Source: a virus. Taken from it: a stretch of DNA of 20,667 bases. Positions 2,304 through 17,179 of the stretch are shown in pieces. The translations under genes were made by a program, and so were the position numbers. Location: positions 3,834 to 24,500 of the IMG/VR virus record IMGVR_UViG_3300029428_000026; one strand, written 5' to 3'. Position 1 is the first letter of the stretch. Each line of letters starts with the position of its first letter. The notes below the pieces were generated by a model, which was not told the DNA's origin, ran no database searches, and was given only the letters and a program-made list of their open reading frames with translations.

Positions 2304-2819
2304 AGGAAAAAGAAGCAATCACCTACCGCCAACAAGAAAATAGGACGGCCCAGCCTCTATACGGAGGCATTAGCCGACGAGATAGCCTCCCGTTTAGCCA
2401 ACGGGGAAACGATGAAGTCCATTTGCTCGGACGATCACATGCCGGAGGTTTTAACTGTCTGGAGATGGAGGCACGAACGGGAAGAGTTTTGTAAACTCAT
2501 TCAACGCGCGCGGGAAGCGCAGTCAGAAGCCATGCTCGACGAGTGTCAGTCTTTGTCAGATGCCGCTGCCCAGGTTGCCCTCGACCCCGAATGCGGATCC
2601 GCCTCCGTCGCTGCCAAGAAGCTCGCCATTGAAACGCGGCTGAAAGTTGCCGCCCGTTTTGCCCCCGAGAAATTCGGCGACCGAGTCCGGCAGGATGTAG
2701 CGGGCGTTCCCGGCGCTCCATTGGAACGCAAAATCACCCTGGACCCCGAGCAGCTTGCCCAGCTCCGGGAAGACGAGAAAACCGCGCTGGAAACCATTGC
2801 CGGCAAACTCCACCCTTAA
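2304..2819 (+). CDS. terS: Terminase small subunit. Proposed AGG start at 2304; the first canonical start is ATG 2412.
   Basis: The frame is open from 2298. GRPSLYTEALADEIASRLANGETMKSICSDDHMPEV..W, the typical TerS HTH N-terminus, is encoded at 2343-2411, upstream of ATG 2412. There is no in-frame ATG/GTG/TTG in 2298-2411. C-terminal ...RFAPEKFGDR is typical of the family. Confidence 0.85.
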   Translation, partial: RKKKQSPTANKKIGRPSLYTEALADEIASRLANGETMKSICSDDHMPEVLTVWRWRHEREEFCKLIQRAREAQSEAMLDECQSLSDAAAQVALDPECGSASVAAKKLAIETRLKVAARFAPEKFGDRVRQDVAGVPGAPLERKITLDPEQLAQLREDEKTALETIAGKLHP

Positions 2820-2825
2820 TCGAGC

Positions 2826-4199
2826 AGGAACCATCTCCCCGTCAGCTTCTTCCTCCGTCACATTCTCGGACTCGATCCTTATCCCTGGCAAATCGAGGCC
2901 ATCAAGGCATTGCTTCTTGGAAAGGTGAGGCTGGGAGGTCGAAGCGTGGCCATGGTTGCTCCGAACGGATCGGGAAAGACGAGCCTATCCATTGCGCCCG
3001 CAATCCTGTGTTTCCTTACCTATTTTCCTCGGGGTCAGGTGCCAGTCACGTCATCATCATGGATGCAGGTAGAAAAACAGCTCTTTCCCGCGCTTCGCCG
3101 CTATATGGATAACCCTTTCTTTGACGGCTGGACATTCAACAAAACCGAAATCCGCACGCCGGAAGGAGGATTTGCCGTGGGATTCTCAACCGACAACGCG
3201 GGACGCGCAGAAGGGTGGCATCCGAAAATCTCGCCCGACGTGGATCCCGTCTTTTACGTCCTGGACGAAGCCAAGACCATTCCCGACTCCATCTTCACCG
3301 CTGTTTCCCGCTGCACGCTCTTCAACGCGTTCATCACCTCGTCGCCGGGTGCCGATTCCGGAACCTTTTACGACTGCTTCCACAAAAATTCATCCCTCTA
3401 CTACAAAATCCGCGTTAAATACGAGGATTGCCCGCACATCGAAATCAACGATCCAGGCAAGGCCGAACGCCTGAAAAAAGAATACGGCGAACAGTCCTCC
3501 TTCTACCGCTCGGCCATCCTCGGCGAATTCACGGACCTTGACGGGCAATCCGTCATTTCCCGCCGCGCCATCATGGAGCTGCTCAACAACCCGCCTCCCT
3601 TTTTGGACACCGGGGAGACCTGCGGCGGCTTTGACTTCGCCGCCGGGGGTGATGAGAATGTCTTCGCGGCCGGACAGGGCAACCGTTTTTTCATCGCCGA
3701 CCACTGGGCCGACCCAGACACTGTAGGAGCGCGCGGACGTTTCCGCCGAAAGGCCGCCGAACTCGGCATCTCTGCCGACCGCATCTTTGCCGACGGCGAC
3801 GGACTGGGGCTTCCCATCATTGACGACTTCCGGGCTGAGGGTTTCCCCGTGCACTCCTACCGGGGAGGCTTCCCGGCAGATGACACACAAGCCTTTGTCA
3901 ACCTCCGCGCCCAAGCATGGAGGGCACTAGCCCGAGCCATCGAAGAAAAAGAGCTCATTCTCGACATCGACGAGGATACCGTTGAGCAACTGGTCGCCCC
4001 CCGCCTCCAGACGGACGCGATTGGGCGCGTCAAAATCGAGAGCAAGGAGGACATGGCAAAGCGGGGCGTCCGCTCTCCAGACCGTGCTGACGCGCTCGTC
4101 ATGGCCTGGCACGCGCGCCGGCACAGCGGACTTGTCCGGGAGCTTGGGACTTGGTATGCCAGACATCCGGCACAAAAACGCGCCATTGGCAGATATTAG
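2826..4199 (+). CDS. terL: Terminase large subunit. Proposed AGG start at 2826; the ORF track starts at TTG 2910.
   Basis: Walker A is VAPNGSGKTS. The conserved N-terminal LGLDPYPWQIEAIKAL is encoded at 2865-2909, upstream of TTG 2910. There is no in-frame ATG/GTG/TTG between the TerS stop (2817-2819) and 2910, and none in any frame across roughly 2806-2880. Confidence 0.9.
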   Translation, partial: RNHLPVSFFLRHILGLDPYPWQIEAIKALLLGKVRLGGRSVAMVAPNGSGKTSLSIAPAILCFLTYFPRGQVPVTSSSWMQVEKQLFPALRRYMDNPFFDGWTFNKTEIRTPEGGFAVGFSTDNAGRAEGWHPKISPDVDPVFYVLDEAKTIPDSIFTAVSRCTLFNAFITSSPGADSGTFYDCFHKNSSLYYKIRVKYEDCPHIEINDPGKAERLKKEYGEQSSFYRSAILGEFTDLDGQSVISRRAIMELLNNPPPFLDTGETCGGFDFAAGGDENVFAAGQGNRFFIADHWADPDTVGARGRFRRKAAELGISADRIFADGDGLGLPIIDDFRAEGFPVHSYRGGFPADDTQAFVNLRAQAWRALARAIEEKELILDIDEDTVEQLVAPRLQTDAIGRVKIESKEDMAKRGVRSPDRADALVMAWHARRHSGLVRELGTWYARHPAQKRAIGRY

Positions 4200-4201
4200 G
4201 G

Positions 4202-4242
4202 TTGACAATATATCAACATATCTATATGTGTTGATTTATATT
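4202..4242 (+). promoter_or_regulatory. Promoter-like AT-rich block with an operator-like inverted repeat, immediately upstream of the tRNA
   Basis: One candidate is TTGACA (4202-4207) + 17 nt + TATGTG (4225-4230). An alternative is TCAACA (4213-4218) + 18 nt + TATATT (4237-4242). Inverted repeat ATCAACATAT (4212-4221) / ATGTGTTGAT (4226-4235) matches 9/10. Confidence 0.45.
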
Positions 4243-4246
4243 CAAT

Positions 4247-4320
4247 CGCAGGGTAGTGAAACGGTATCATATGAGGTTCCTGTCCTCATGTCGGAGGTCC
4301 AACTCCTCCCCCTGCAACCA
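4247..4320 (+). tRNA. tRNA with anticodon CCT (decodes AGG), an initiator-type acceptor stem (C1xA72) and an encoded CCA
   Basis: Hand-folded cloverleaf. Acceptor CGCAGGG/CCCTGCA; U8 A9; D stem GTGA/TCAT; D loop AACGGTA. Anticodon stem TGAGG/CCTCA; loop TT-CCT-GT; variable loop TGTC. T stem GGAGG/CCTCC; T loop TCCAACT; discriminator A; CCA. Atypical points are C at position 55 and the 1:72 mismatch. Confidence 0.8.
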
Positions 4321-4343
4321 ACCTTTTCTTTTCCTCCCGCCGC

Positions 4344-5708
4344 AGGTTTAACGCCGTCCGAAATATCCTCAACGCCCCGAAGCTGGTCGCCCAACAGGAG
4401 ACCAGAATCAAGGAGCTGGAAACAGACCTCGCCCGGCAAGCCTTGACGGACCGGAGCCGCACTCCTGGCCGCCCTCAATGGTTTGAATACTGGGACCCTC
4501 TTCAGGGCGCCGGCTTGCAAACACTTATCGATGCACGCAACGAAGCCAGACGCGGCGCCTTTGCGCGGCAAATGCTCATCTGGGACGAGGTTATCTACTC
4601 GGACGGACTTCTGGGCATGCTCTACTCCCGGTTGATTGAAAGCGTTTCCATGCAGGGCTGGAAGATTGACGCCGCGGACGACAGCCCGGAAGCCCAGCAG
4701 CAGAAAAACGCCCTGGAAGAATTCTACAACTCCGTCAACGGACTTCAGCAGTCCTTCGGGCATCTGGCCTCCGCTCTGTTCTACGGCTACGCCCACCTCC
4801 AATATATTGAGGACGCCTGGGGCCGGAGGTTTGAATTCATTCCCCAGCGTTACTGGGTGCGGCCCGGGGAACTTAATGAGTGGCAATTTAACCCCCACTG
4901 TTATATCGGCGTCGATACCGGGGAAAGTGTGGAAGACGAAACTCTCGTCGTGATGGAGCACCGTTACCCCATCCTGTTCCCTGCTTCCCGCGCATCCTTT
5001 GAGCGCAACCACGCCAAGATGATCTGGGACAACCACATGGACCGTTACGGCTCCGCCCCGGCTATTATCACAGCCCCCAAGGAGGCAAGCGCCGCTGTTA
5101 TGGACGCACTTGAGCGCGCCTGCGAAGAGCTCAAGTCTGGCGCATCCGTCGTCCTGCCTCCCGGCTGTACAGCAGAACCTCTCAAGGCATCCTCCATCAA
5201 CGAAAACTACTTCCTATCCCGCATCAACATGGCCGACAAGGATCAGGTGCGGTTTGTGATGGCAGGAACCTTGACTGTTCTGAATGAATCGGGCTCCGGC
5301 ACGCTGGCCGGGTCTGCCCATACGGACAGCTGGAACTCGGTGGTCTCCGCCGTGTGCTCCAAGGTAGCGGAAGCTTTTAACGCCTCCATCAGCCCGCTGG
5401 TGCTGAGAGACGGCGAACCGCTGGCCCGCCTCCAAATCACCTTTGACACCGTTCAGACGCCGCTGCAGAAGGCCGAGGAAATTGCCACTCTTGCGGATGG
5501 AGGCGTCCGTCCCGAGAAAACCGAAATCGAAGAAAAGATCGGCATGTCCATCGAAGACGCGAAGGCAGCCGATCCCGCAGCGGCTGCCGTCAACCGGGAA
5601 CCGGAAGGCACATACATCCCCGCCGACGCTTACGAGCAGCTGCAGCAGCTCATTTATACCGGGCTCATGAAAGGATTTAGCGATGATCAGTACCAAACAA
5701 ATCAATGA
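4344..5708 (+). CDS. Portal protein, Mu gp29/DUF935-like. Proposed AGG start at 4344; the canonical alternative is TTG 4443.
   Basis: Resembles the Mu gp29 N-terminal region (..LQTLIDARNEARRGAF..DEVIYSDGLLG..). The frame is open upstream and encodes the plausible coiled coil MFNAVRNILNAPKLVAQQETRIKELETDLARQA. Confidence 0.85.
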   Translation, partial: RFNAVRNILNAPKLVAQQETRIKELETDLARQALTDRSRTPGRPQWFEYWDPLQGAGLQTLIDARNEARRGAFARQMLIWDEVIYSDGLLGMLYSRLIESVSMQGWKIDAADDSPEAQQQKNALEEFYNSVNGLQQSFGHLASALFYGYAHLQYIEDAWGRRFEFIPQRYWVRPGELNEWQFNPHCYIGVDTGESVEDETLVVMEHRYPILFPASRASFERNHAKMIWDNHMDRYGSAPAIITAPKEASAAVMDALERACEELKSGASVVLPPGCTAEPLKASSINENYFLSRINMADKDQVRFVMAGTLTVLNESGSGTLAGSAHTDSWNSVVSAVCSKVAEAFNASISPLVLRDGEPLARLQITFDTVQTPLQKAEEIATLADGGVRPEKTEIEEKIGMSIEDAKAADPAAAAVNREPEGTYIPADAYEQLQQLIYTGLMKGFSDDQYQTNQ

Positions 5709-6824: not shown

Positions 6825-7256
6825 ATGCCATCACTCAATGTAACCCAGAAAAGCGCCATCGTCTATTTCAACACCCCGGAGGGTGTTGACCTGTGCGGAC
6901 AGGAAGGAACCGTCGTGGCGCTGACCGCCAACCCGGACATCCCCGAGTTTATCGGGACGCCGTTGTCCGCCATCCCTACGCAGACACAGCTGCTCGGCGT
7001 AGTCCTGCAAGGGCAGCCCAACCAGGGAACCTGCGTCGCCGCCCTCGTCGGCATGTACGCCGGCCTGATCAAGGCGGCTCTTTCCGACACGCCGGGCACG
7101 ATCAACGCCGGAACGCCCCTCACCATCACGGCCAACGGAGCATGGAAGGCCGCCGCCAGCGGTGAAACCGTCTATGCCCGCGTGATTCACGCCCAGTGGG
7201 AACAGGGCATGGTGGAAATCGGCTTCGTCCCCTCCTACCAGGTCGCGGCTGCGTAA
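6825..7256 (+). CDS. Small head protein, decoration/DUF2190-like (tentative)
   Basis: A 143-aa Gly/Ala/Val-rich beta-type sequence placed between scaffold and capsid. ATG start directly after an in-frame stop. Confidence 0.6.
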   Translation: MPSLNVTQKSAIVYFNTPEGVDLCGQEGTVVALTANPDIPEFIGTPLSAIPTQTQLLGVVLQGQPNQGTCVAALVGMYAGLIKAALSDTPGTINAGTPLTITANGAWKAAASGETVYARVIHAQWEQGMVEIGFVPSYQVAAA

Positions 7257-7290
7257 CATCAACCCCAACCAATAGAAAGACCAAAAAACA

Positions 7291-8214
7291 AGGGCTACTC
7301 CATTTTGCTCAGCCGTCCAGTTCACCGATGTCCTGACCGCCTACTCAGCCGGCTCCGGGAACACCGAAGAGAACTCCATTATCAGCCGCATCGCGCCGAT
7401 CGTCCCGGTTTACGACCTCAATTTCCAGTACAAGGTCTGGGACACGGAATCTGCCTTTACGGTCCAGCCGATCCAGGTGGGACCGGGCGAACCTCCCCGC
7501 CAGACCGTCCTGCGCGGCAGGAACGAAACCGACACCCTTCAGGGGTACGGCTTAACCTTGCCGATTCCGGACGCCTTGCTGGGCGTCAACCGCGAAAAGG
7601 CGCAGGCTATCACCCTGGCGGAATACAAGCTCATCGAATCACAGTTTGTGACCTCGTATGAATATGAACGCGCCAAGCTCATCACCAGCCAGTTGCCTGC
7701 CGCAGCCGGTTACGGGGACTGGGCCAACGAACAGAAGAATCCGCTGACGGATCTGGATAATGCCATCCTGTCCATCAATGCGGCGACTGGACACATGCCT
7801 AACACCATCGTCTTTGGCATCAACGCCTGGCAGCTCCTGCGAGCCAACCCCATTGCCAGACAGGTGGTGTCATTCAACAGTGTCGGCCTCTTCAACGAAG
7901 ACCTGCTCCGCAATGCGCTGATTCGGCCTATCAGGGATATTTACATCGCAGCCATGCCCTACCGCGACGCTTCCGGCGACGCCAAGACCATCATGGAGAA
8001 CGAAGTCTATGTCCTGTACAAGGAAGACTCCCCGACGCAGTTCGACGCCTCTGCCATCAAGACGTTTGGTTTGTCCGGCAAGCTCCGCCGCGAAGTCATC
8101 ACGGAATACAAGCCGACGCCCGCTTTGACGCTGGTAACCAACCGCGTCTACTCGCTGACCAAGCTGACCAACCCGTCCGCCATCGTCCGCATCGACGCGA
8201 CGGCCACGGCTTAA
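7291..8214 (+). CDS. Major capsid protein. Proposed AGG start at 7291; the ORF track starts at GTG 7477.
   Basis: A 307-aa product at the capsid position. The frame is open from 7276 and encodes protein-like MATPFCSAVQFTDVLTAYSAGSGNTEENSIISRIAPIVPVYDLNFQYKVWD.. upstream of GTG 7477. There is no in-frame ATG/GTG/TTG in that stretch. Confidence 0.85.
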   Translation, partial: RATPFCSAVQFTDVLTAYSAGSGNTEENSIISRIAPIVPVYDLNFQYKVWDTESAFTVQPIQVGPGEPPRQTVLRGRNETDTLQGYGLTLPIPDALLGVNREKAQAITLAEYKLIESQFVTSYEYERAKLITSQLPAAAGYGDWANEQKNPLTDLDNAILSINAATGHMPNTIVFGINAWQLLRANPIARQVVSFNSVGLFNEDLLRNALIRPIRDIYIAAMPYRDASGDAKTIMENEVYVLYKEDSPTQFDASAIKTFGLSGKLRREVITEYKPTPALTLVTNRVYSLTKLTNPSAIVRIDATATA

Positions 8215-11409: not shown

Positions 11410-12057
11410 AGGCCTAATACTTACGACCCTACTTACAGCAATCGCAATGTGACTCCGCAGATTACGGGCGTCCTGGCGATTTTTCTCCCTGACGGCATCA
11501 AGGTGACCGAGGAAGGCGGCGCCTCCTACGTTACCGGACCTTATCAGTTCCCGGAGCCTCCTACTGCGCCTCCCGTCGATCCGACGGCAGGCCCCGCATT
11601 CCCCTGGGTGAGCTTTGGCTTGCTGGGTGCGTTCCAATCCGTAGCTACGCAGGTGGAAGGAGAAGTCACCCGCTTCTATGGCGGTCCTCTTGGTTACCGC
11701 GTCCAGCGCAAGAATACCACCACTGGGAAGCGCATGACTTTCACGACGCCGGACATGTCCCCGGAATACTTCCAGCTCTCTTTTGCGCTGGGCGGGGCCC
11801 CGGCAAACGGAAAGGAAGCCGTTGCTATCGGGCATGGCGGCGACAACAAAATCGAAGGTTACCTGCAGCTGTGGTATCAGAACGATATTGGCGAGATATT
11901 TCTTACCTACATCGGGCATGGCGCCTTGCGTCTCTTGCAGGACCCGGAACACACAACCGCGGTGGCGTCCGCGCAGTTTGAATTTGAGATGGATTACAAG
12001 GGTCAGTACCAGGCCACGCCGTCCAATATTCAGGATGTGACGACGCCCGCTTCCTGA
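11410..12057 (+). CDS. Putative major tail (tube) protein. Proposed AGG start at 11410; the canonical alternative is GTG 11449.
   Basis: A ~215-aa beta-rich protein at the tube position, followed by a strong terminator. In-frame AGG lies 5 codons after the upstream stop, in the context ATTCAAGCATCAGG. Confidence 0.6.
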
Positions 12058-12070
12058 CATACCAACCCAA

Positions 12071-12100
12071 GGGGCGCAAAAGCGCCCCGCAACCCTTTTT
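12071..12100 (+). terminator. Rho-independent terminator after the tube-like gene
   Basis: GGGGCGC (12071-12077), loop AAAA, GCGCCCC (12082-12088), then a T-run TTTTT at 12096-12100. Confidence 0.75.
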
Positions 12101-12110
12101 CTTCCGCTTC

Positions 12111-14231
12111 AGGCAACAGGCAGGCAAATATGATATACGGACCGTCACGGGACTCAACCAGTCACTGGTCGTGCGCGTGGTGGATTTCCAGGGAGATCCC
12201 GTCGATATGGGCGGCGTCACCCTGCGCGGAGCCGTTCGCCTCAAGACGGGTATTGCCGAGTTCGGCTTTTCCCGTGACGACGAGGGCAACGGCGTGATTT
12301 CGTGGGCCTCGGTACCCGCGGGCATGTGGTCCTACGATGTCTTCATGGATGACGGCAACGAGGAAAGCCCGCTTCTCTATGGATGCTTTGTTTCCTCAGG
12401 CCGGGTGACGCCGGACTTGCCGGACGAGCAGCAGGCGGTAGCGGGCGCGGTCGTCGTGCAGCTGCCGGAAGGAAGCGGATGCGTGCAGGTGGTGCTTGAT
12501 AATGCGTCAAGCGCCGCCTGGTACGCGGAGCAGGCCAAGAAGTACGCCGAGAATTTCAATCTTTCGGTGGACCGGGTCACTACCGGCGAGCCTGGCACTC
12601 CTGCCGCAGCGGAAGCCGTGAAAGGCTCGGAAGCGGGCTCTTATCTGTTGTCGTTTACCATCCCCAAAGGAGACGCCGGTCCCGAAGGCCCACCAGGCCC
12701 GCAGGGGGAACCGGGCGAAACCGGCCCCGAAGGCCCTCAGGGTCCCAGGGGCGACGCAGGACCTCAAGGTCCTCAGGGAGCGACCGGAGAACAGGGACCA
12801 AGAGGCGACATTGGAGAAACCGGACCGCAGGGTCCTGCCGGCCCGCAAGGCCCCGAGGGGCCGGAGGGTCCCCAAGGACCCCGTGGCGAGAAAGGAGATA
12901 CCGGGGATGTTAATCCGGACGGGTCTTATAACTGGACGCAGCCGCAGACCTACGACGCCACGATCACCGCAATCGAAGGAGTCCGTGTGCCGCTGCCCGC
13001 CACAGGGCAGAATGCCATTTCCTATGAGGGAATGATAACCATGACGGCTGCCGGCCAATGGAGCCGCACCAACTATTTTCTGGAATCCGTCATTCCGTCA
13101 TGGGTGACCGCCTTGGTGGAAGCCCAGTCGTTGAACACAAGCTACGCAATTGCTACCGCTAACGCCTCCCTGAAGAAGGGAGTATTTAATAACGACTTGT
13201 GCGATATGGTATTAACCATGACGGCGGCCGGGGGTGTTTCTGTTATCGGCAAATCCACGGGATCATGGAAATTTGCCAATTACATGGGCAACAATAGAAA
13301 TAACGAATATGCTGCCGCTTGCGCCTGGCGGATACTTGGCTCCGACAAGGTGTCGGTTCTCTTGGGCAGCACTGCCCAGGGGTACGCTACGACTGCCGAT
13401 CCGCTGGCGTCCTGCTATTCACATCCTGTGCACTGGGTGGATTATGCCTGGGATAATGCAAATTACAGGTATCCGCAAAACAATACAGTCAATGGAGCGA
13501 GAGGGGGCGACAATGTGCCGGCGTATCAGATCACTACCTACCCTATGGGGTATCTGGGGAGCAATAAGTCGGCCTTGATAAGGGGGACGTTTTACGGACC
13601 CCTCAAGGTAGATTCCCATTATGTTTGGGCATTGGCTCCGGCTTTTACCTACGTCTCCGCGGCCATGACGCCACCCAACCCCGATGACCAGGAGATTTAC
13701 AATCGCTGGGCTTTGTTTGTGGACAAGCAATATGTAATGGATATGGCTTCCTCCTTTTGGGGCGCCGGCAACACAGCATGCCTTACAACCAAATTCAAGG
13801 CGCACGAAGTCAGCGGGACTTATCAGGCGGGCCTCCGGATGGGAGGAATGAGGATAGACAATGCACCCTCACTGGGCATAACCAACTCCTGGGTCCTCAT
13901 GAAGGACACGGTAATGGAGGGCGTGACACCTAAACCAGTTCCAGAAGTAACGGCTTCTGCTCAGGAAGTTCCGGCCTCTGGCGGCGAGGTGACATTGACG
14001 GCGTCTTCCACCCTCTCCGAGGCTATCTATGTGCTGAACGATACCATGTGCGGACATGACCCCGCCGCTGTGTGGTGCACGCAATCCTCTGAAGAAATAG
14101 GGTCCGGCGGCGGCCAGGTTGTCCTGACGCTGGCGGCAAACACGACTGGACAACCGCGGCAGGTGTGGGCGTTTGTCGGCCACCATTACGCCGAGGCCGC
14201 CGTTGTAGAAATCAACCAATTAGCGCAATAA
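12111..14231 (+). CDS. Collagen-repeat tail fibre with a BACON/Ig-like C-terminal domain. Proposed AGG start at 12111; the canonical alternative is GTG 12171.
   Basis: Contains 27 uninterrupted G-X-Y triplets. A fibre-type motif, [10 protein letters not shown], precedes them. The C-terminus (13947-14228) fits the BACON-like pattern ..[35 protein letters not shown]. Confidence 0.85.
12669..12911 (+). repeat. Collagen-like G-X-Y triplet repeat (27 triplets) inside the fibre gene
   Basis: [81 protein letters not shown]. Confidence 0.95.
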
Positions 14232-15352: not shown

Positions 15353-15418
15353 TCAACTGTAAAGTTTTTCTTACAAGTTCATACATATTAATAACCAATC
15401 AATTAAAGGAGAATATCC

Positions 15419-15949
15419 AGGAAAATAGCCATTGATATAGGCCATGCCAACAACACCGGAGCCCGTGGAAACAGGCTTGAAGAACACGCCGTAGCAGCGA
15501 CGATTGCGGAACGCCTCGCGCCTATGCTCAGAAAGCTGGGCGCCCAGGTGGACGTAATTGACTTTCCGGCCCAGAGCAACACGGACGACCTGAACGCCAC
15601 CATCAAGGCCGCCAACGAAGGCGGCTACGACTTCGGGATTTCCCTGCATTGTGACTCATCGGATAATGTGCAAGCTCACGGCGCCCATGTGTGCTTCTAT
15701 CCCGGGAGCGTTAAGGGAAGCCGGCTTGCCATGTGCATCGCGGAACCTCTTGCCCGGCTGCTCCCAGGACGGGACTGCACGGTGTTGGCCCGTCCGGGGC
15801 TGGCCGTCCTGAAAAGGACGCGCTGCCCGTGGGTGCTGTGCGAATGCGGCTTTATCACCAATCCTGAAAATGCCGCCCTTATGAAGGACCATCCCGAAGC
15901 CATTGCGGAAGCCATTGCGGAAGGAGTGAAGGCCTATTCCAAGCTGTAG
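15419..15949 (+). CDS. N-acetylmuramoyl-L-alanine amidase (Amidase_3) endolysin. Proposed AGG start at 15419; the ORF track starts at ATG 15524.
   Basis: KIAIDIGHANNTGARGNRLEEH.., which includes the first zinc ligands, is encoded at 15422-15523, upstream of ATG 15524. There is no in-frame ATG/GTG/TTG after the stop at 15404-15406. AAGGAG (15406-15411) sits 7 nt before AGG 15419. Confidence 0.88.
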   Translation, partial: RKIAIDIGHANNTGARGNRLEEHAVAATIAERLAPMLRKLGAQVDVIDFPAQSNTDDLNATIKAANEGGYDFGISLHCDSSDNVQAHGAHVCFYPGSVKGSRLAMCIAEPLARLLPGRDCTVLARPGLAVLKRTRCPWVLCECGFITNPENAALMKDHPEAIAEAIAEGVKAYSKL

Positions 15950-15955
15950 ACGATC

Positions 15956-17179
15956 ATGATCTACGAGGCCCCATACTCCGCATGGTACGTTTCCGGAGCC
16001 GGAAACACGCTCCAACTCCTCAACCTCTGGGATGCCACGCCGGAGCCTCCCCGGTTCGGCGGAGACATAGAAGTCTTTGAAACGTCCCTGGTGGACGGCA
16101 CGAGGGCTTTTGCGGAAGGATTGGGGTCTGCCGTAGAACACCGCACCTTTGCCTTTTACCGCTGGTTTAAGGACTACGAAGAAATGGCCAGGTATCAGGA
16201 AAACCTGGCTGTCTGGATGGCAACCAACCAGAACGGCACTCTGTACATGCAGTTTGCCGACCAGCCTCAATGGAGATTCACGTCCGTCCTTGCCGGCTAC
16301 CAATTTGAAACGGAGAACTTCATTCCTCCTCCGTCGCCGGAAGACGGTTATTTGTGTCTGCTGGTATCCATCAACATGACGCTCACGGACCGGGTTCCCG
16401 ACAATTCAGCCTGGGTGTTCTCCGTGACTCCTTCCTCGGTTTCCGTCCCGGCTGCCGGCGGACAATATGCGTTCTCCGTCGTCTCCTACTTCAACCCGGG
16501 CGAAATCGGGCAGGGCTGGAAAGCCTTTGAGAACGACGGCATCTCCATCTCCAACATCATCAACGGCAACAATGGCTCCTTCCGGGTTACAGTGCCTCCC
16601 AACGAAACTACGGAAGAAAAAAGCATTTATCTGACAGTTTCCCAGGACGGAACCGGAATCGCTCCTCTCATTGAGATCACCCAGGCGGCATCCACGCCCC
16701 AGGAGAAAACGGTGGGCTCTCCCGTCTTCCTGGAAGGGGATCCTGCCAAGATTGCCGCCTTGGGAACGTTTAACTGGCGGCAATACCGGATGAAGTGGGG
16801 AGAACAGGTAGACGGTGATCCGCCGCCGGCAGCCTCCATCAAATCCGTCACCGTGGCCCGCGGGAGCACCAACAACATCAGCACTGCCCTTTCGCTGTAC
16901 GTCCTCAATGAGGATGGGTCCACCACAACGCTGCTGGCTACCAGCAACGCCGCGGTTAATGACGCCGCCAGCCAGCAGGCGACATTCACCTTTCCGACGC
17001 CGCCCAAAGTGGAAGCCGGGATGCAGCTCATCTTCCAGCCCGGCGCCGTCGTATACACCAAAATTGAGAATATCGCGGCCTACGATTGGGGCGGCCTTGC
17101 CTATCGGCCTTATCCGGCCGCAATCACCACGCCTGCCGTGATGCCGGCCATGTCGCTGGACGTCGAATACATCGGATAA
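15956..17179 (+). CDS. Virion structural protein with a central BACON/Ig-like domain and a C-terminal putative binding domain
   Basis: The 16412-16693 region encodes WVFSVTPSSVSVPAAGGQYAFSVVS...SFRVTVPPNETTEEKSIYLTVSQDG..IEITQAA. ATG start. Confidence 0.7.
   Translation: MIYEAPYSAWYVSGAGNTLQLLNLWDATPEPPRFGGDIEVFETSLVDGTRAFAEGLGSAVEHRTFAFYRWFKDYEEMARYQENLAVWMATNQNGTLYMQFADQPQWRFTSVLAGYQFETENFIPPPSPEDGYLCLLVSINMTLTDRVPDNSAWVFSVTPSSVSVPAAGGQYAFSVVSYFNPGEIGQGWKAFENDGISISNIINGNNGSFRVTVPPNETTEEKSIYLTVSQDGTGIAPLIEITQAASTPQEKTVGSPVFLEGDPAKIAALGTFNWRQYRMKWGEQVDGDPPPAASIKSVTVARGSTNNISTALSLYVLNEDGSTTTLLATSNAAVNDAASQQATFTFPTPPKVEAGMQLIFQPGAVVYTKIENIAAYDWGGLAYRPYPAAITTPAVMPAMSLDVEYIG

Follow-up and report, generated by a model that had tools for sequence, protein, structure and literature searches.

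In natural translation, to our knowledge, the initiator transfer RNA (tRNA) always carries the anticodon CAU, and start codons other than AUG are read by this same tRNA via mismatches. The AUU of infC is a conserved regulatory non-canonical start. An amber initiator tRNA (CUA) was reportedly described in E. coli by Varshney and RajBhandary in 1990, and phages that recode stop codons with suppressor tRNAs of their own are said to have been described by Ivanova et al. in 2014 and by Borges et al. in 2022. The sigR gene of Streptomyces has a GTC start (PMC5472188). Here we consider a stretch of 20,667 nucleotides (the window; positions 3,834 to 24,500 of the IMG/VR virus record IMGVR_UViG_3300029428_000026), which represents the late part of the genome of a temperate Akkermansia phage whose head module is Mu-like. 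Our reading is that seven of its late genes, the major capsid protein gene among them, are initiated at AGG codons in dependence on an initiator-type tRNA that the phage itself encodes, and from the comparative evidence given below we put the probability of this reading at roughly 0.85.

Initiation at AGG by an initiator tRNA with a CCU anticodon is feasible, because the engineered pair works in E. coli. In the available part of a preprint, the pair of initiator tRNA-CCU and AGG gives the largest fold-change of 12 non-canonical pairs in 5 of 6 strains (35- to 402-fold), UAA lies slightly above AGG in Nissle 1917 with both above AUG, and the authors state that the CCU/AGG pair is the highest-expressing in all strains (bioRxiv 10.64898/2026.04.16.719103). 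A phiX174 engineered to have TAG at three capsid-gene starts fails to replicate unless it is provided with an amber initiator tRNA (bioRxiv 10.1101/2024.07.29.605542).

The start of the major capsid gene

We start from the reading frame of the capsid protein. In the translation of 7273-8214 the frame opens after a TAG at 7273-7275 and reads stop-KDQKT-R(AGG 7291)-ATPFCSAVQFTDVLTAYSAGSGNTEENSIISRIAPIVPVYDLNFQYKVWDTESAFTVQPIQ-V(GTG 7477), with the context of AGG 7291 given also by ATPFCSAVQFTDVL. A first-pass annotation of the window had pointed out that no ATG, GTG or TTG occurs in this frame from the TAG to GTG 7477, and both the translation and the mechanical list of open reading frames (ORFs) bear this out; the list enters the capsid as 7477..8214, a product of 245 amino acids with a GTG start. 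The TTG at 7305 does lie in another frame, as had been said, where it opens an arginine-rich ORF of 118 amino acids (7305..7661). Counted from AGG 7291 to the TAA that ends at 8214, the capsid has 307 amino acids. The chance of a run of 67 codons without a canonical start is roughly 5% at the composition of the window (an estimate), which makes it mildly unusual, and the significance of the stretch therefore comes from homology, not from its length. The two features concerned are:

7273..7290, + strand: non-coding capsid leader, with the in-frame TAG at 7273-7275 and a conserved purine-rich AGAAAGAC at 7274-7281, 9 nucleotides short of the start codon
7291..8214, + strand: major capsid protein gene, 307 codons plus stop, with predicted start AGG at 7291-7293, placed by the phrog_1005 match, the ATG homologues and the codon-position divergence

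The profile phrog_1005 (major head protein) matches the capsid with an E-value of 4.2e-19, residues 17-269 of a translation started at 7276 corresponding to profile positions 13-274 of 315. Since residue 17 falls on profile position 13, the N-terminus of the family is expected at about 7288-7294. A protein search returns two full-length homologues of 307 amino acids that start with ATG, P0001 (MPNNFCTAVQFTDV; MPNNFCTAVQF..) and P0005 (MANLFYSAVQFTDV; MANLFYSAVQF..). In the alignment the Met of both falls on the R of AGG 7291 and the match continues residue for residue, so that these homologues start at the equivalent of 7291 and not of 7477. Other relatives, in Akkermansia muciniphila genomes and gut metagenomes, are called at 245, 246 or 278 amino acids.

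At the level of DNA, about 95 loci were compared, taken from IMG/VR, ENA/JGI metagenomes, one metagenome-assembled genome (MAG) in GTDB and the GenBank phage CP084202.1; the GTDB genome scan gave a single locus (L051), in an A. muciniphila MAG, which adds host identity and no new lineages. The capsid starts with AGG in 92 of 95 loci and with ATG in 3. The DNA of the ATG homologues (L006-L008, L046, L049) has ATG exactly where the window has AGG: the lineage of L008 reads TAGAAAGAC-AATCAATCA-ATG GCT AAT CTA, and the spacing of the leader is TAGAAAGAC-N9-AGG in the window and TAGAAAGAC-N9-ATG in L008 and L046. Among the AGG lineages, whose DNA explains the short calls, one from A. muciniphila with a capsid protein 71% identical to that of the window reads ...CCAACCACA AGG GCT AAT CTA TTT TAT, and one at 93% identity reads ...CCAAGAACA AGG GCT ACT CCA TTT TGC.

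On the 5' side of the capsid AGG the lineages diverge, with a 1-nucleotide indel inside the N9 spacer and unrelated sequence, and the indel implies that the DNA there is not coding. On the 3' side, across the 61 codons between AGG 7291 and GTG 7477, 20 sequence variants differ 78, 66 and 340 times at codon positions 1, 2 and 3, and the codon changes are synonymous in 271 cases and non-synonymous in 129. The 62 codons upstream of GTG 7477, which the first-pass annotation had called protein-like, prove by homology and by this codon-position pattern to be the conserved N-terminus of the major capsid protein, and the segment is conserved at the protein level under purifying selection. Given this divergence upstream and the constraint on the codons downstream, coding begins, as the comparison of loci has it, at AGG 7291 or immediately beside it. 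The first in-frame canonical start lies 19, 29, 42, 62 or 95 codons further downstream, depending on the locus. The proposed start at AGG 7291 and the length of 307 amino acids are both supported, with the ATG homologues beginning at the equivalent codon. The other start that had been considered, CTG 7333, is indeed in frame, but initiation there is unlikely, the 13 codons that precede it (ATPFCSAVQFTDV) being conserved; within the AGG lineages their changes are mostly synonymous (TCA/TCC, GCC/GCT/GCA, GTC/GTT), and the ATG homologues have matching N-termini.

The capsid leader has no significant RNA structure (z -0.67). A heptamer A_AAA_AAC, the classic -1 slippery sequence, stands at 7283-7289 just 5' of the AGG; it occurs in the lineage of the window only and is probably coincidental.

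We judge it very probable that the capsid is the 307-residue product of 7291-8214 and not the 245-amino-acid GTG product of the gene callers, because a tRNA of the phage would let AGG serve as a start codon. It is to this tRNA, and to six further genes that start with AGG, that we now turn; the tRNA was not seen in the first-pass annotation.

The CCU-anticodon tRNA and the AGG-start genes

ARAGORN finds a single tRNA in the window, located between terL and the portal gene, 3 kb upstream of the capsid gene and on the same strand. Its anticodon, CCU, is the exact complement of AGG, and ARAGORN types it as tRNA-Arg (cct). The tRNA and the region in front of it are:

4202..4246, + strand: putative promoter-like and operator-like region, with a conserved TTGACA at 4202-4207 and ATATCAA/TTGATAT-type repeats
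4247..4320, + strand: initiator-type tRNA with anticodon CCU and encoded CCA (ARAGORN; Rfam tRNA model, 51.2 bits)

The sequence of the tRNA is CGCAGGG-UA-GUGA-AACGGUA-UCAU-A-UGAGG-UUCCUGU-CCUCA-UGUC-GGAGG-UCCAACU-CCUCC-CCCUGCA-A-CCA, and cmscan with the Rfam tRNA model flags the first acceptor pair as non-canonical. Two ORFs that cross the gene, 3982-4446 (+ strand, 154 amino acids) and 4242-5036 (- strand, 264 amino acids), are almost certainly spurious.

All related loci with enough upstream DNA carry the CCU tRNA, and 15 sequence variants were compared. The cloverleaf is 95% paired, eight stem pairs show compensatory changes and the anticodon is invariant; the structure is thus under selection. 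The mismatch C1xA72 is present in 15/15 variants, with the other six acceptor pairs paired and covarying, and it is kept even where the acceptor stem has changed at two other pairs (CGCAGGG/CCCUGCA versus CGCGGGA/UCCCGCA). In bacterial initiators an unpaired 1:72, the pairs 2:71 and 3:70 and three G:C pairs in the anticodon stem are determinants for formylation, for IF2, for the ribosomal P site and for exclusion from EF-Tu. The variants have G2:C71 in 14 of 15 (G.U in the remaining one), C3:G70 in 15/15, and A73 with an encoded CCA in 15/15; at least 11 of the 15 variants, the commonest one (31 loci) among them, have G:C at all of 29:41, 30:40 and 31:39, and two have U31.G39. The acceptor stem differs by a single base pair from CGCGGGG/CCCCGCA-A-CCA, its counterpart in E. 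coli tRNA-fMet. An elongator tRNA needs a Watson-Crick 1:72 pair for use by EF-Tu, and A20 in the D loop belongs to the identity set of arginyl-tRNA synthetase (ArgRS) by the E. coli rules; of the features of an elongator tRNA-Arg, this tRNA has the CCU anticodon and lacks the other two. On its sequence it is initiator-like without being a tRNA-fMet, having neither a CAU anticodon nor A11:U24.

Two further ideas on the tRNA were discarded. A role as a codon supplement does not fit the usage of internal AGG, which makes up 0.5% of codons (29/5735) and 9% of Arg codons. A fourth pair between G37 of the tRNA and a C at position -1 is unspecific, since a C at -1 is found not just at 6 of 7 AGG starts but at 8 of 14 ATG starts as well.

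The window was scanned for reading frames that run on for some distance before their first canonical start, and each was compared with the other loci. Seven late genes start with AGG, namely terS, terL, the portal, the capsid, a 215-amino-acid protein, the tail fibre and the endolysin; the remaining 14 genes start with ATG in every locus. The six genes other than the capsid are:

2304..2819, + strand: terS, small terminase (Sf6-like; PF20901, phrog_1482); AGG in 82 of 82 loci, with AGG AAA AAG AAR in 82/82
2826..4199, + strand: terL, large terminase (phrog_2); AGG 6 nucleotides after the terS stop; AGG in 84 loci, ATG in 2 (L046, L049)
4344..5708, + strand: Mu-like portal (PF06074, phrog_113); AGG 23 nucleotides after the tRNA; AGG in 90 loci, TTG in 2 (the tRNA-less L049 and L050)
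11410..12057, + strand: structural protein of 215 amino acids, family not assigned, candidate tail protein; AGG in 71 loci, ATG in 2; homologue in L049 with ATG
12111..14231, + strand: collagen-repeat tail fibre (PF01391, tail-fibre phrogs); AGG in 68 loci, ATG in 2; ATG in L049
15407..15949, + strand: endolysin (Amidase_3; PF01520, phrog_435), with Shine-Dalgarno AGGAGA at 15407-15412 and start AGG at 15419; AGG in 33 loci, ATG in 17

In the capsid and in these six genes alike, the AGG stands at the start position of orthologues and separates variable, non-coding DNA on its 5' side from constrained coding DNA on its 3' side. From the AGG to the first canonical start, the differences at codon positions 1, 2 and 3 are 68/28/230 for terL, where the canonical start comes 9-28 codons in according to the locus, and 37/36/106 for the portal, where it comes 33-76 codons in. 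The tail fibre gives 7/2/96, with 99 synonymous changes against 4 non-synonymous. The endolysin, the clearest case, has the canonical Shine-Dalgarno sequence AGGAGA, a gap of 6 nucleotides and AGG AAA ATA GCC ATT GAT, where sister phages have ATG AAA ATA GCC ATT GAT; their N-terminus, MKIAIDIGH, is the normal one of Amidase_3. Between the stop of the 215-amino-acid gene and the AGG of the fibre lies a terminator-like hairpin, GGGGCGC-AAAA-GCGCCCC with a U-tract (12071-12100, z -2.5).

Upstream of terS (2255-2306 in the window; L009-L216 among the other loci) lies a -35/-10-like pair whose -10 hexamer ends 6-9 nucleotides before the AGG, in at least eight unrelated sequence types, which suggests that the terS mRNA is leaderless or near-leaderless and begins at the AGG itself. 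In a leaderless mRNA the pairing of initiator codon and anticodon is the main, and essentially the sole, start signal. Because AGG is fixed at terS, the portal, the 215-amino-acid gene and the fibre in all tRNA-bearing loci, with the lysin polymorphic, we infer that at some genes selection favours AGG, beyond tolerating it.

The next question is whether AGG starts and the tRNA occur together. All loci that cover an intact gap between terL and the portal have the tRNA, except L049 and L050 (capsid 84% identical, from Logan assemblies), the sole related lineage without it. This lineage has canonical starts at all homologous positions that were found, terS not being found there. In L049 these are ATG for terL, TTG for the portal and ATG for the capsid, the 215-amino-acid homologue (N-terminus MATTLSPDYANRNVSPQITG), the fibre (MSTPALYNIKTLTGL) and the amidase (MRIAIDIGHAN). 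One further locus, L207, appeared to have AGG starts without the tRNA and was set aside, being a metagenome contig with a truncated or rearranged prophage in which only the last 12 nucleotides of the tRNA are left (L207:7031-7042) beside unrelated DNA. Its tape-measure homologue, further upstream (L207:3613), starts with AGG where the counterpart in the window (17516) has ATG, and the set of AGG genes thus varies among relatives. The locus L046 has the tRNA and starts four genes with AGG (terS, the portal, the 215-amino-acid gene, the fibre) and two with ATG (terL, the capsid), from which it follows that the converted set of genes differs between lineages.

The region 4202-4246 might act as a regulated promoter, driving both the tRNA and the head genes. 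Its TTGACA and repeats are conserved in nearly all loci, a consensus scan gives TCAACA-N18-TATATT at 4213-4242, and the tRNA-less L049 has TTGACA-N17-TATGTT in the same gap between terL and the portal.

Proposed mechanism and rival explanations

We propose the following course of events. The tRNA would be charged, most likely with Arg, formylated (C1xA72, G2:C71 and C3:G70 being the formylase determinants) and used by IF2 and the 30S subunit, and in the ribosomal P site its CCU anticodon would match all three bases of AGG by Watson-Crick pairing. AGG would in this way be the start codon of a fixed late set (terS, terL, portal, capsid, 215-amino-acid protein and fibre), joined by the endolysin in two thirds of the loci. 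What IF3 requires is a cognate match of codon and anticodon, not AUG itself, as anticodon-mutant initiator tRNAs demonstrate.

A CCU anticodon is not a substrate of methionyl-tRNA synthetase by the E. coli identity rules, and C35 is reportedly the major Arg identity element (Schulman and Pelka, in 1989). Arg is our guess because C35 and U36 dominate ArgRS identity in E. coli, though A20 is missing. The length and the start site of the capsid in the first-pass annotation, which had the 307-amino-acid product begin MATPF, stand, but its Met as residue 1 is not necessary with a CCU anticodon. The first residue may be (formyl-)Arg or another; the product may begin (f)R-ATPF rather than MATPF, and Arg, possibly formylated, is the best guess.

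Such a system would amount to a natural reassignment of a start codon, a private CCU initiator tRNA making AGG the start for packaging, virion and lysis genes and so providing an orthogonal channel that licenses late proteins. We regard this wider interpretation as likely, with somewhat less assurance than AGG initiation itself. For its purpose we prefer a translational licence, whereby leaky transcripts would yield no terminase, portal, capsid, tail, fibre or lysin before transcription of the tRNA, which has a conserved promoter-like and operator-like region of its own. Alternatively, the system may confer resistance to host defences that attack tRNA-fMet, or may insulate the structural module from the host or from competitors.

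Several points weigh against tRNA-dependent initiation at AGG. The tRNA has U11:A24 in 15/15 variants, where initiators have A11:U24 (purine 11, pyrimidine 24), and most variants carry G37 (one carries A37), where initiators have A37. The variant in the window has A29:U41, which leaves two of the three G:C pairs of the anticodon stem; AU/GC/GC initiator stems are tolerated in some bacteria. The elbow is atypical, the T loop being UCCAACU with C55 for the near-universal U55 in most variants, and G19 of the D loop varies (G, U, A or C). The D loop, AACGGUA, has U at position 20 and so lacks the A20 of ArgRS identity, which makes the amino acid uncertain. In a comparison with 548 other phage-borne tRNAs all best matches are initiators (best identity 57/74, mean 52/74; mean to 27 phage Arg tRNAs 40/74), but this comparison is crude and its set was partly chosen by acceptor-stem pattern. 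In L046 the tRNA coexists with an ATG capsid start, and the co-variation of tRNA and AGG starts rests on a single tRNA-less lineage, with few independent contrasts. Initiation at AGG, the charging and formylation of the tRNA and the production of virions are predictions of this work, and the regulatory rationale is pure inference.

What other explanations could account for the AGG? The codon might be read inefficiently, as a near-cognate, by the host fMet-tRNA (CAU), the phage tRNA being unrelated to it and serving, for example, as an elongator tRNA-Arg for rare AGG codons. According to the preprint cited above, the unaltered initiator tRNA of E. coli initiates promiscuously, if weakly, at many codons, AGG among them (bioRxiv 10.64898/2026.04.16.719103), and the ARAGORN type of the phage tRNA agrees with an elongator. 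A mismatch at the second position, however, would give very poor initiation, unfit for a capsid needed in hundreds of copies or for seven late genes together, and with a CAU anticodon a leaderless terS starting with AGG would be essentially untranslatable. The phage tRNA itself speaks for an initiator, with its constant C1xA72, initiator-like acceptor and anticodon stems, absence of A20 and greater nearness to initiators than to Arg tRNAs; internal AGG usage is low, against an elongator role, and the lineage without the tRNA has no AGG starts. We hold near-cognate reading to be improbable. Recoding of another sort is a much fainter prospect, be it a frameshift (from TTG 7305 or at A_AAA_AAC 7283-7289), a bypass from the upstream gene of 143 amino acids, RNA editing of AGG to AUG or an element like an internal ribosome entry site. 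The slippery-looking AAAAAAC and the TTG in another frame invite such ideas, but neither is conserved, other lineages having CCAAGAACA or CCAACCACA for the one and GGC TAA in the TTG frame of the window for the other. The frames of the heptamer do not run into the capsid frame, the frame of the 143-amino-acid gene closes at 7256, before the capsid frame opens, and the ATG relatives need no bypass. The unstructured leader argues against an entry-site element, and any of these ideas would leave the six other AGG starts and the matching tRNA unexplained.

It is just as doubtful that the gene callers are right and that the capsid begins at GTG 7477 or CTG 7333, with the upstream codons untranslated. 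Public annotations do list capsid products of 245, 246 and 278 amino acids, and CTG 7333 is in frame; yet the upstream codons are homologous both to the N-termini of the ATG relatives and to phrog_1005, they show the third-position excess of a coding sequence (78/66/340), the codons before CTG 7333 change mostly synonymously, and no alternative start is conserved, the first canonical one moving between 19 and 95 codons. Least credible of all is that the prophage is in decay and its AGG stems from a sequencing error or from a mutation of ATG that inactivated the gene. AGG is indeed one base from ATG, and L207 is clearly a truncated or rearranged prophage. The same AGG, however, recurs in about 90 independent assemblies, in lineages only 70% identical in the capsid protein, and at six other genes; all AGG-start genes are under purifying selection, and the 31.9-kb relative CP084202.1, which comes from a cultured strain, was deposited as a complete phage molecule in its own right. 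The comparative data effectively refute error or decay. Initiation at AGG by the phage tRNA thus remains the reading that we adopt in what follows.

Phage context and comparison with known systems

The relative CP084202.1 (L216, 'Akkermansia phage DTMo-2021a') is 31.9 kb long, comes from the host A. muciniphila NBRC 114322 and is unannotated as a record. It carries one tRNA (CCU), a tyrosine integrase, a weak RecT-family match and a PD-(D/E)XK nuclease (L216 116-1312, 5316-7442), and no translation enzymes are seen among the early-region proteins scanned. Given the tyrosine integrase, we take this to be an integrating temperate phage and not a transposable one, despite the Mu-like portal and protease.

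In the window the head module runs from the portal (PF06074, called at 4443-5708) through a gpI-type protease (PF10123, 5683-6804) and the 143-amino-acid ORF to the capsid (phrog_1005). By its profile match the capsid goes with the HK97-fold capsids of Mu-like modules (phrog_1005, with a weak match to PF03864 Phage_cap_E), sharing family and gene order and differing in the unusual start codon only. An AlphaFold2 model from a 13-sequence alignment has a mean pLDDT (predicted local distance difference test) of 44 and is unusable as evidence of the fold, and a profile search of the PDB gives only a marginal match, 3bjq (E 0.03). The tail fibre has collagen triple-helix repeats (PF01391). The protein of 407 amino acids that follows the endolysin (15956-17179) has a sub-threshold match to the BACON domain (19.7 bits, cut-off 25), a hint that it may bind glycans or mucin, as would make sense in a mucin-degrading host.

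Phages of this family turn up very often in human gut data, and a single capsid variant is indexed in 353 blocks of the assembly collection. Its public capsid records are N-terminally short, as in WP_155844665.1 ('major capsid protein', 278 amino acids), GKI07910.1 (245) and QWP21056.1 (188, from A. massiliensis); database entries for the capsid are often named 'hypothetical protein', with hosts that include A. muciniphila and A. massiliensis. Public portals are called at 378-421 amino acids, against 454 here. On our reading, gene callers systematically shorten the terminase, portal, capsid, fibre and lysin genes, or give them a wrong start, in a very common family of human-gut Akkermansia prophages, and the tRNA on which all depends passes for a normal tRNA-Arg in tRNA scanners.

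If the reading is true, this would be the first natural initiator tRNA with an anticodon other than CAU, and the capsid and its companions possibly the first proteins naturally initiated with (formyl-)arginine. The natural flexibility of the genetic code would then reach initiation, beyond sense and stop codons, and the phage would offer a natural counterpart of synthetic designs for orthogonal initiation and phage biocontainment. For the engineering of Akkermansia, a next-generation probiotic, the AGG/CCU pair would supply an orthogonal start signal that is ready for use, and the translational licensing of lysis and virion genes, like the initiating amino acid, becomes a testable hypothesis.

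How special is the arrangement? A pattern scan of IMG/VR for initiator-type tRNAs gives none with an NCN anticodon and four with N[GT]N, all of them reverse strands of ordinary Met tRNAs, against at least 120 tRNAs for the CAU control; the pattern covers only CGCGGG../..CCCGCAA acceptor stems and the negative is limited accordingly. With a D-arm pattern, the tRNA type with C1/A72 and CCU is found in no phages but those of this family. The open-access full-text literature, to which the search was confined, subscription-only literature being outside the scope, yielded engineered analogues and no natural initiator system with AGG or CCU. Within that literature a natural, dedicated non-CAU initiator tRNA with matched reassigned start codons appears undescribed, and its mechanism has engineered precedents.

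Set beside the canonical tRNA-fMet of phages or hosts, the tRNA shares C1xA72, G2:C71, C3:G70, A73-CCA and, in most variants, the G:C-rich lower anticodon stem, and differs in the anticodon, which is CAU there and CCU here. Closest in principle are the engineered initiator tRNAs (CUA, i-tRNA-AAC and i-tRNA-CCU), in which an initiator body with a changed anticodon starts translation at the complementary non-AUG codon; the engineered dependence of phiX174 on a special initiator tRNA is a strikingly parallel design. Those systems are laboratory constructs with a tRNA supplied by the host, whereas the present one would be natural, phage-encoded and evolutionarily maintained in a phage of a gut Verrucomicrobium, and is known from its sequence to lack A11:U24 and A37. 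Phages with suppressor tRNAs resemble it in that a phage tRNA alters the meaning of one codon, with the effect concentrated in late, structural and lysis genes and with timing or licensing as the proposed role. They act on elongation and termination, TAG or TGA being read as sense, while here the step affected would be initiation, a sense codon being read as a start in the P site. The AUU of infC and the GTC of sigR are likewise conserved, functional starts outside AUG, GUG and UUG; they are decoded with a mismatch by fMet-tRNA (CAU), and discrimination by IF3 keeps the expression of these single genes low, whereas in the Akkermansia phage a dedicated tRNA would serve a whole set of highly expressed virion genes.

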